A stretch of DNA of 50,378 bases from a virus. Taxonomy: Duplodnaviria; Heunggongvirae; Uroviricota; Caudoviricetes. Under the pieces are notes generated by a model, which saw only the letters and a list, made by a program, of their open reading frames with translations, was not told the DNA's origin and searched no databases. The DNA is taken from IMG/VR virus record IMGVR_UViG_2562617057_000009, positions 1 through 50,378 of that record; one strand, 5' to 3'. A program made the position numbers and the translations under genes. Positions 49,766 to 50,378 of this stretch are shown piece by piece; within the stretch, counting starts at the first letter, position 1; each line of letters starts with the position of its first letter.

Positions 49766-50060
49766 ACGGGGCGGGAGCGGCGCAGAATTTCACTATTTAT
49801 GAAAATTTTTCGGAAACCATGTCCGGTTTTTCTGGGAGTTAACTATTTGAAAAATATAAAAATTCACTTTCCGTGAACCGGACATGCGCAAAAATTGAAC
49901 ACTCAAACCGGACATATATGCCGCGTTTCATAAAGTTGTTCGCAAGATGCATGTTTAAAACGCATGAGGGGAGATTTTTTGGCGAGGTGAACAGTGGCTA
50001 CTCAGACTGAAGTTGCCAGGCATTTGAGTCTGACCGATCGCCAGCTTCGCAGATTACAGA
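49766..50060. other. cos region B: near-identical copy of 22833-23127 (cosN, ACCGGACAT repeats, first 23 Nu1 codons) with a ~55-bp divergent internal block
   Basis: Direct comparison of the two stretches. Confidence 0.6.
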
Positions 50061-50062
50061 AA
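49994..50062 (+). pseudogene. 5' fragment (23 codons) of a Nu1-type terminase small subunit gene
   Basis: MATQTEVARHLSLTDRQLRRLQKL identical to the Nu1 start at 23059, then diverges. Confidence 0.55.
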
Positions 50063-50093
50063 TTGTTCCCCCATCACTATGGAGACCATAACC

Positions 50094-50378
50094 ATGACCG
50101 ACGCCGAACTACTGAAAGTAATCCGCCGTATTACCGGAATCAGTCAGGCAACAGGCAAACAGGTGGCCACGCAGCCGGACAGCGTGACAGCCGAAAACTA
50201 TGCGCGTGTTGTTGCTGAGGTTATGCGCCGTGACGGTATTGAGCTTAACGGCGTGGATATGCGCAACATACGAACCAGAGTCCTTGAGTTGCTGGCATAC
50301 CGTCGCCGTTCTCAACAACGGAGGGAGAGCATGAAAAATACTTACCAGTGGAAGAAGCCGGAACGGTTGCGGCGGTAG
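50094..50378 (+). CDS. hypothetical small basic protein next to cos B
   Basis: 94-aa ORF after GGAGA; stop is at the window edge. Confidence 0.4.
   Translation: MTDAELLKVIRRITGISQATGKQVATQPDSVTAENYARVVAEVMRRDGIELNGVDMRNIRTRVLELLAYRRRSQQRRESMKNTYQWKKPERLRR

Follow-up and report, generated by a model that had tools for sequence, protein, structure and literature searches.

Two nearly identical cohesive-end (cos) regions are found in the 50,378-nucleotide stretch of IMG/VR record IMGVR_UViG_2562617057_000009 analysed here (the window, meaning the whole stretch), and they raise the question of why the second copy differs from the first in one short internal block and leads into a small basic gene. 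An earlier note on this DNA had seen in that block, together with the protein of 94 amino acids encoded next to it, what a packaging-redirection mechanism would look like. Here we show that copy 1 represents the cos site, together with the full Nu1 gene for the small terminase subunit (TerS), of a defective lambdoid prophage, and that copy 2 is the cos site of a decayed Gram-negative phage-inducible chromosomal island (PICI) of the EcCICFT073 family. Most probably, the second cos is the packaging site of a PICI that carries a lambdoid helper-type cos, and not a redirection device. Carrying the cos of a helper is an already known way for a satellite to be packaged, and the window PICI adds a member to the satellites that use it.

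The two cos regions differ only in the R3-R2 spacer

Alignment of both regions showed that 22831-23127 corresponds to 49766-50062 at an offset of 26935, giving 297 bp in common with exactly 12 substitutions and no other difference. All 12 are confined to a 45-bp span, flanked by perfect identity over 64 bp on the left and 188 bp on the right, and so tight a cluster is hardly expected by chance (exact p = 2.5e-9 for 12 random mismatches within 45 of 297 positions). The common segment extends from 3 bp before the predicted cosN to the end of Nu1 codon 23, beyond which the copies are unrelated. The localized difference described in the earlier note is therefore real, as are the 23 common Nu1 codons and the subsequent divergence into an open reading frame (ORF) of 94 amino acids, hereafter ORF94; two of its figures needed correction, since the first region had been started at 22833, 2 bp off the correct register (22831 = 49766), and the block measures 45 bp rather than ~55 bp. 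An assembly artefact could be ruled out, because the pair is also present in the finished genome NZ_CP119441.1 (L001/L003, with one extra substitution) and the PICI copy in the IMG/VR contigs L023 and L058.

Both copies follow the plan of a lambda-type cos (Table 1). The cosN site was placed by alignment to ACG/GGGCGGCGACCT/CGC of the cos sites of CFT073 phage 4 and of PICIs, the slashes marking putative nicks. Upstream lies a cosQ-like heptamer, GGGTCCT, and the distance from it to ACG/GGGCGGGAGCGG is 26 bp in the prophage and 27 bp in the PICI copy; between cosQ and cosN, the window PICI has the spacer type of the CFT073 and IHE3034 PICIs, not that of the prophage. Downstream of cosN, three putative TerS-binding repeats, R3, R2 and R1, are identical in both copies, R3 and R2 are separated by 45 bp in both, and all subsites except cosQ occupy equal positions. 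The divergent block is the spacer between R3 and R2. It holds the sole match to the consensus of integration host factor (IHF) in the region, which the prophage has at the equivalent place (22905-22917); within this 13-mer the prophage and PICI copies differ only once, at an N position.

In lambda, the subsites of cosB follow each other in the order R3-I1-R2-R1; R3 occupies bp 50-65, and R2 runs in the opposite direction to it (PMC9026076). Both window copies show this plan, with cosQ, cosN, R3 at bp 51-59, an IHF match and an inverted R2, and they agree with the lambda family as a whole (PMC9026076) in the order and spacing of subsites, R3 at ~bp 50-60, the inverted R2, the IHF-type site between, and a Nu1 start ~80 bp after R1. 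They differ from lambda in the repeat itself (ACCGGACAT), in a variant cosN and in R1, which is oriented like R2 and not like R3. The placement of the block against cosB that the earlier note had called for was thus made on the lambda plan (PMC9026076), where the block falls in the R3-R2 spacer, clear of the R sites and of the IHF core. A block outside the functional cosB elements was what that note had named as speaking against its proposal, and this is largely what we found, with R3, R2, R1, their spacing and the IHF core unchanged.

The second cos occupies the packaging slot of a PICI

The second copy lies in the 3' part of an island in which genes for primase fragments, single-stranded DNA-binding protein (SSB), an E-like capsid protein and a D-like decoration protein were recognised by Pfam matches. 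The 5' part of the island (int, alpA etc.) is absent, being cut by the IS4-like insertion sequence (IS) IS421 at ~43741. Annotated PICIs in NZ_CP119441.1 and VL7S7 match the island at 99.9% identity; the one in NZ_CP119441.1 adjoins tRNA-Pro and carries upstream an int gene cut by IS21, a helix-turn-helix (HTH) regulator, an Icd-like gene, DUF4222 and a primase gene cut by IS110. The whole island is ~10 kb long, and the window holds its 3' half, which is collinear with the islands of IHE3034 and CFT073. We assign it to the PICIs because of this gene content, the 99.9% identical relatives and the collinearity; its module order (int, HTH, primase, capsid/cos late module) is that of a Gram-negative PICI of the EcCICFT073 family. 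Islands of this kind measure ~10-15 kb, occupy a specific attachment site and are built from int, alpA/HTH, pri-rep with ori, and the late module.

EcCICFT073, which encodes the capsid homologue c1499 and the decoration homologue c1500 (PMC6092414) and is packaged by lambdoid cos helpers (PMC6092414, PMC6739421), has the same backbone as the window PICI: E-like capsid gene, D-like gene, 137-aa gene, terminator, cosQ-cosN, cassette and last gene. The PICI of IHE3034, which has been marked and tested for transfer (PMC6092414, Table 1), matches the window at ~89-96% nucleotide identity from the primase gene through those for SSB, capsid, decoration and the 137-aa protein as far as cosN. Each of the three islands has, after the 137-aa gene, the same terminator-like hairpin, cosQ (GGGTCCT) and cosN. 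The slot that comes next holds a PICI-specific cosB, a 144-aa protein, an inverted second cos and a 93-aa gene in EcCICFT073; the 144-aa protein is RppA, matching the RppC structure 6HLK at 5e-31. The slot of IHE3034 has a cosB of its own, a full-length TerS of 180 aa, an inverted cos2 whose cosB resembles the one of CFT073 phage 4, and a 93-aa gene. In the window it holds a complete phage-type cosB, a 23-codon Nu1 stub, 31 bp and then the 94-aa gene.

The window PICI thus differs from EcCICFT073, where rppA and a PICI-specific cosB at cos1 redirect the helper TerS, in having no rpp, a phage-type cosB at the cos1 position, a Nu1 stub and no inverted cos2, as well as cosN GGGCGGGAGCGG compared to GGGCGGCGACCT. 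From IHE3034 it differs in that its Nu1 stub belongs to another TerS lineage. The reading of the stub continues out of frame to 50218, producing a 74-aa chimera, and RefSeq labels it a partial pseudogene. Rpp proteins were defined as proteins of ~144-153 aa with an N-terminal winged HTH that mimics the DNA-binding domain of TerS, and a dimerisation helix; no Rpp homologue was found between the 137-aa gene and the window end, and tblastn with RppA matched other PICIs and missed the window-type contigs L023 and L058. The cosB of an Rpp-type PICI lacks the helper R sites (altered R3 position; no I1, R2 or R1), whereas the window PICI cos keeps the R3, IHF site, R2 and R1 of the phage copy. What the island does have is what characterises a satellite with a helper cos, namely 297 bp in common with the cos of a phage in the same genome, only a 23-codon stub of terS, and no rpp.

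We propose that the segment 49739-50062 serves as the PICI cos site within a variable cassette that separates the 137-aa gene from the last gene, and that the usual content of this cassette (a PICI-specific cosB with rppA, or with a satellite terS) was replaced in the window lineage by a lambdoid phage segment like that of the resident prophage, comprising cosN, R3, the IHF-type site, R2, R1 and 23 Nu1 codons. The left crossover would lie within the cosN sequence common to PICIs and phages, and the right junction would be an illegitimate break inside Nu1; the presence of the stub indicates that the segment was captured from a phage by recombination. Because repeats, spacing and IHF core equal those of the phage, we predict that TerS and the large terminase subunit (TerL) of helpers with the window Nu1 type recognise the island directly, without being modified. 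No redirection of specificity would be involved, and the strategy would be that of carrying the helper's cos, as in P4, SaPIbov5 and 11capE. Helpers of this type exist, as shown by intact phages with 98-100% identical Nu1 and TerL (L022, L061, L072 and L088) and by the phages PhiR12_1 to PhiR12_5, which carry the cosB family of the window prophage. This family is present in 1185 of 5426 complete E. coli genomes, and the window phage type is a candidate helper of the island.

Like the window PICI, the satellites P4, SaPIbov5 and 11capE have no terS of their own and a cos segment in common with the helper. In 11capE, a helper-embedded satellite without terS, a 258-bp segment 90% identical to the helper cos sits at the usual PICI cos position (bioRxiv 10.1101/2022.07.18.500453). 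Satellites of this kind are presumably packaged by the unmodified helper terminase. The window PICI differs from these three in that its segment includes a stub of the helper terS, marking its phage origin, in that the identity is perfect outside a 45-bp patch, and in that the island has a second helper-type cos, of the mEp460 type.

The spacer varies among phages with the same repeats

IMG/VR was scanned for R3-N(40-50)-R2, and the 120 occurrences were classified by their neighbouring genes. Most are phages in which a full Nu1 (91-100% identical to the window Nu1) and then TerL follow; others are PICIs in which the cosB of ACCGGACAT type is the inverted cos2 beside rppA, and further ones are PICIs with gene-less cassettes. 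Among these occurrences there are 20 distinct spacers, every one 45 bp long. The 15 unique phage spacers differ pairwise by 1-14 mismatches (median 7), and GTTAAC, TGAAAAATA and the A-tract are essentially invariant in them and retained in both window copies. Most of the 12 changes in the window pair affect sites that are also variable between phages in which the repeats are the same and Nu1 is full-length, and the number of differences is inside the normal range for phages with identical R sites. The 12 substitutions would accordingly represent a patch of allelic difference within the R3-R2 spacer, which evolves faster than any other part of this cosB family, and are most likely neutral with respect to specificity.

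A sister PICI (L034) shares the Nu1-stub junction of the window PICI and has an ORF94 of 96% identity, but its R3-R2 spacer and its cosQ-cosN spacer are both of phage type, which indicates that neither the stub architecture nor ORF94 depends on a PICI-type block. When both halves of the block were searched for a donor in IMG/VR, only the identical PICIs L023 and L058 matched; a search of JGI metagenomes and GTDB genomes gave zero matches, and in 5426 complete E. coli genomes only three PICI carriers exceeded 95% identity, the next best match being 89.5%. A small hairpin or palindrome beside R2 was considered as a hidden element and dismissed, the best inverted repeats lying at inconsistent registers in the 20 spacer variants.

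ORF94 is a conserved PICI gene unlike TerS or Rpp

ORF94 encodes a very basic protein (isoelectric point 11.1), and its stop codon TAG forms the final three bases of the window. The possibility raised in the earlier note, that it is merely the N-terminus of a standard TerS continuing beyond the window, does not hold. A TerS was defined by an N-terminal winged HTH and a Phage_Nu1 oligomerisation and TerL-binding region within ~170-180 aa; ORF94 is complete with its own stop, has orthologues of 94 aa, does not match Phage_Nu1 and has no winged HTH. An Rpp identity was likewise rejected, with no similarity to RppA or RppC in sequence or predicted fold: BLASTP against RppA gave E=4.3, and no PDB match was obtained, though RppC (6HLK) is in the library. 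In the searches of Pfam, NCBIfam, PADLOC and PDB sequences, no relevant match to ORF94 was found. A model from the single sequence had a predicted local distance difference test score (pLDDT) of 67, and one from an 18-sequence alignment reached pLDDT 76 with a predicted template modelling score (pTM) of 0.48, showing three helices and no wing; Foldseek comparison of the model with PDB and BFVD returned nothing at E<=0.001. The homology and structure comparison with TerS and redirection proteins suggested in the earlier note therefore revealed no resemblance in sequence or fold.

Close homologues of ORF94 form ~986 clusters at 90% identity in Enterobacteriaceae, all unnamed, and an exhaustive HMMER search found only 39 representatives (50% clustering level), nearly all of them close relatives or fragments, indicating a narrow family with no profile that reaches further. 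The orthologue is the last gene of both EcCICFT073 (71% identical) and the IHE3034 PICI (76%), and orthologues with 69-100% identity adjoin rppA, terS and gene-less cassettes alike. ORF94 is thus a conserved gene of the PICI backbone, which by its distribution would stand outside any specificity switch. Its C-terminus, Y-x-W-(K/R)-(K/T)-P-(E/K)-(R/H)-L-R-R, is nearly invariant even in distant homologues (44-46% identical) and looks like a docking peptide or a DNA-binding tail. When the EcCICFT073 genes after ori were cloned singly, only c1503 (rppA) blocked lambda (PMC6739421).

A separate observation concerns a 2175-aa protein (P0136), in which 11 separate stretches match residues 29-61 of ORF94 (31% identity, E=2e-17); this is a repeat protein that shares the central helix motif of ORF94.

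A third cos and the multiple cos sites of related islands

The window contains a third cos site, missed by the earlier note, inside the PICI between the SSB gene and the capsid module. It consists of a terminator hairpin, cosQ GGGTCCT, a ACGGGGCGGGAGCGGCGC identical to that of the other two copies, and a different cosB; ACGGGGCGGGAGCGGCGC has three matches in the window compared to 0.09 expected. From cosQ through cosB, this site is nearly identical to the cos region before terS in phage mEp460 (NC_019716), and a related site occupies the corresponding place in the IHE3034 PICI (L002 10741). The third cos and the cos starting at 49739 are 2440 bp apart in the same orientation and correspond to two lambdoid TerS families. 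The predicted cohesive end GGGCGGGAGCGG is common to all three cos sites of the window, whereas CFT073 phage 4 and cos1 and cos2 of the CFT073 and IHE3034 PICIs have the lambda-type GGGCGGCGACCT instead.

The inverted cos2 of EcCICFT073 (L004, NC_004431.1 ~3100-3340, minus strand) contains a complete ACCGGACAT-family R3-I1-R2-R1 cosB, like that of the window cos, although the describers of this island could not identify a phage cosB in it; a specific helper family is hereby predicted for cos2. The window PICI thus has an mEp460-type cos (47300) and a ACCGGACAT-type cos (49739), EcCICFT073 an Rpp-specific cos1 and a ACCGGACAT-type cos2, and the IHE3034 PICI three cos sites. A tentative idea, which we regard as possible but somewhat doubtful, is that PICIs of the EcCICFT073 family carry arrays of two to three cos sites with common cosQ and cosN, each fused to the cosB of a different TerS family, and that the cassette is a swappable and invertible helper-range module that is rebuilt by recombination with a resident prophage at the common cosN, the stub cos of the window being one such swap. 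If so, the island could also gain from its private spacer allele, through a tuning of the IHF-assisted assembly of TerS.

In two other PICIs (L019 and L006), the cassettes from the 137-aa gene to the last gene are inversion isomers with collinear flanks, the ~600 bp between the inverted cos1 and cos2 running in opposite directions at 97.8% identity. These isomers imply that the inverted cos repeats recombine and thereby switch which cosB faces in which direction. Such an inversion was rejected as the origin of the window cassette, which has a Nu1 stub and no inverted cos2.

Table 1. Positions of the cos subsites and of the genes of the prophage and the PICI in the window.
Feature	Position	Strand	Remark
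Prophage cos-Nu1 region	22805..23568	+	
Prophage cosQ	22805-22811		
Prophage cosN	22834-22845		predicted cohesive end GGGCGGGAGCGG
Prophage R3	22884-22892		
Prophage R3-R2 spacer	22895-22939		
Prophage R2	22942-22950		
Prophage R1	22972-22980		
Prophage full Nu1	23059-23568		
PICI remnant (3' part), EcCICFT073 family	43741..50378	+	
Primase fragment			
IS110 insertion	44117-45292		
Primase C-terminal part	45567-46292		
85-aa ORF			
SSB	46837-47259		
Third cos site (mEp460 type)	47300..47470	+	between SSB and capsid module
Third cos, cosQ-cosN copy	47300-47343		
Third cos, cosN	47329-47340		predicted cohesive end GGGCGGGAGCGG
79-aa ORF			
Lambda E-like capsid	47880-48935		
D-like decoration	48947-49282		
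137-aa ORF	49295-49708	+	
Terminator-like hairpin and T-run	49712..49737	+	closes 137-aa gene, directly left of cosQ
PICI cosQ-like heptamer	49739..49745	+	GGGTCCT
PICI cosN (predicted)	49769..49780	+	12-nt cohesive-end sequence GGGCGGGAGCGG
PICI R3-like repeat	49819..49827	+	ATGTCCGGT, putative TerS-binding; bp 51-59 from first cosN base
PICI R3-R2 spacer (divergent block)	49830..49874	+	45 bp, 12 substitutions vs prophage
PICI IHF-consensus match	49840..49852	-	TTTCAAATAGTTA, 1 mismatch to WATCAANNNNTTR; I1-equivalent, beside A/T tract
PICI R2-like repeat	49877..49885	+	ACCGGACAT, reverse complement of R3
PICI R1-like repeat	49907..49915	+	ACCGGACAT, oriented like R2
Nu1 (TerS) stub	49994..50062	+	GTG and 22 codons identical to prophage Nu1
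ORF94	50094..50378	+	complete, basic; phrog_1561 (unknown function)
ORF94 C-terminal motif	50343-50375		residues 84-94

Both partners have decayed in the window genome

The prophage Nu1 starts with GTG and encodes 169 aa that match Pfam Phage_Nu1 (PF07471) at 4.8e-18. TerL, from 23483, is cut by IS1, and according to the annotation of an identical region the head genes and most tail genes are missing. The PICI copy, without int, alpA and an intact primase, is probably immobile. Since the prophage lacks the TerL C-terminus and heads and the island lacks its 5' half, the packaging system is inert in the window genome, both partners being relics. In the three complete genomes that contain the window-type PICI, island and prophage are ~100 kb apart. 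Decay by insertion sequences is heavy at 23483-25653 and at ~42500-45292, and an ipaH gene (28853-30496) near the prophage and PICI suggests an enteroinvasive E. coli or Shigella-like host.

The 137-aa ORF next to the cos belongs to phrog_1999, of unknown function, and is conserved in PICIs. It has a weak match (2e-8) to phrog_53 (head-maturation protease/scaffold), at profile positions 494-567 of 583, and may be a scaffold-like (Nu3-like) fragment, as it lies beside the E-like capsid and D-like decoration genes. Membership in the capsid-forming PICIs (cf-PICIs), which encode capsid, protease, portal, connectors, HNH, terS and terL (bioRxiv 10.1101/2022.09.08.507074), was rejected, as the window PICI has only the E-like capsid gene, the D-like gene and the 137-aa scaffold-like ORF, with no portal, protease, terL or HNH.

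Discussion

The redirection reading holds that the 45-bp block of the PICI and the 94-aa protein together divert terminase from the phage to the PICI cosB, the protein favouring this cosB variant either by itself or jointly with the helper TerS. Part of it stands, in that the second cos does belong to a satellite and sits in the slot that holds rppA or terS in relatives, next to which ORF94 directly follows; the block is moreover private to the window PICI lineage, with bases unseen in phage spacers, and ORF94 is very basic with a nearly invariant C-terminal motif. The device itself found no support. The R sites, their spacing and the IHF core are unchanged, L034 joins the same ORF and stub to a phage-type block, and ORF94 orthologues stand beside unrelated cosB types without co-varying with the block. 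ORF94 lacks a winged HTH, neither its sequence nor its predicted fold is like that of TerS or Rpp, and only c1503 of EcCICFT073 interfered with lambda (PMC6739421). We therefore consider redirection highly improbable. A role of ORF94 as a general late or packaging accessory at any PICI cos, for instance a DNA- or terminase-binding adaptor acting independently of the block, is compatible with its constant place directly after the cos cassette in the orientation of the capsid module, with its ~986 clusters and with its basic character and strongly conserved YxWKKPERLRR C-terminus. This too seems unlikely, as a terminator-like hairpin and the cos separate ORF94 from the upstream operon, homology and the moderate model give no lead towards such a function, and no interference phenotype has been reported for EcCICFT073 genes besides c1503 (PMC6739421).

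The 45-bp block could instead be the ancestral PICI allele, whose flanks derive from two recent gene-conversion tracts off the co-resident prophage, the highly mismatched spacer having escaped conversion. On both flanks the PICI matches its co-resident prophage at 100%, whereas L034 and the phage L088 depart from this prophage at 1-2 flank positions, and the PICI-type cosQ-cosN spacer has been kept, with the phage-like tract beginning exactly at the common cosN. However, two independent tracts would be needed around a 45-bp island, PICI and prophage lie far apart in all three complete carrier genomes, and a stub PICI with a fully phage-like cos, such as L034, fits a single acquisition followed by replacement of the patch. 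On this evidence, we regard gene conversion as an unlikely origin of the present arrangement, and prefer that of a PICI with a captured helper-type cos.

Several points weigh against this preferred explanation. The spacer of the window PICI is an outlier, at least 9 mismatches from every sampled phage spacer, and five of its bases are absent from phages at those positions, of which positions 1 and 37 are invariant in phages. The allele is private to the window PICI lineage and no donor was found in the databases searched; it could come from an unsampled donor, or be an old allele with flanks later converted by the resident prophage, and the neutrality of an imported patch is assumed. Only 3 of 5426 complete E. 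coli genomes have the stub configuration, a rare one found in decayed copies, so that it may represent a dead end instead of a working strategy. The orientation of R1 departs from lambda, while cos activity, nick positions and the binding of TerS and IHF are predictions from the sequence. Finally, the ORF94 orthologue was likely, but not certainly, among the genes cloned in PMC6739421.

The cos finding itself is mostly deflationary, as it concerns a known kind of satellite using a known trick, with both partners decayed here. Its wider meaning lies in the packaging slot of EcCICFT073-type islands, which appears as a hotspot that contains rppA, terS, nothing, or a cos-Nu1 piece of a phage. If the extra cos sites work, they would explain the use of several unrelated lambdoid helpers by one island and would assign a helper family to cos2 of EcCICFT073, whose cosB the original authors could not identify. 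The host range of such satellites, and the gene transfer that they mediate in pathogenic E. coli, hinge on this step of helper-cos recognition.

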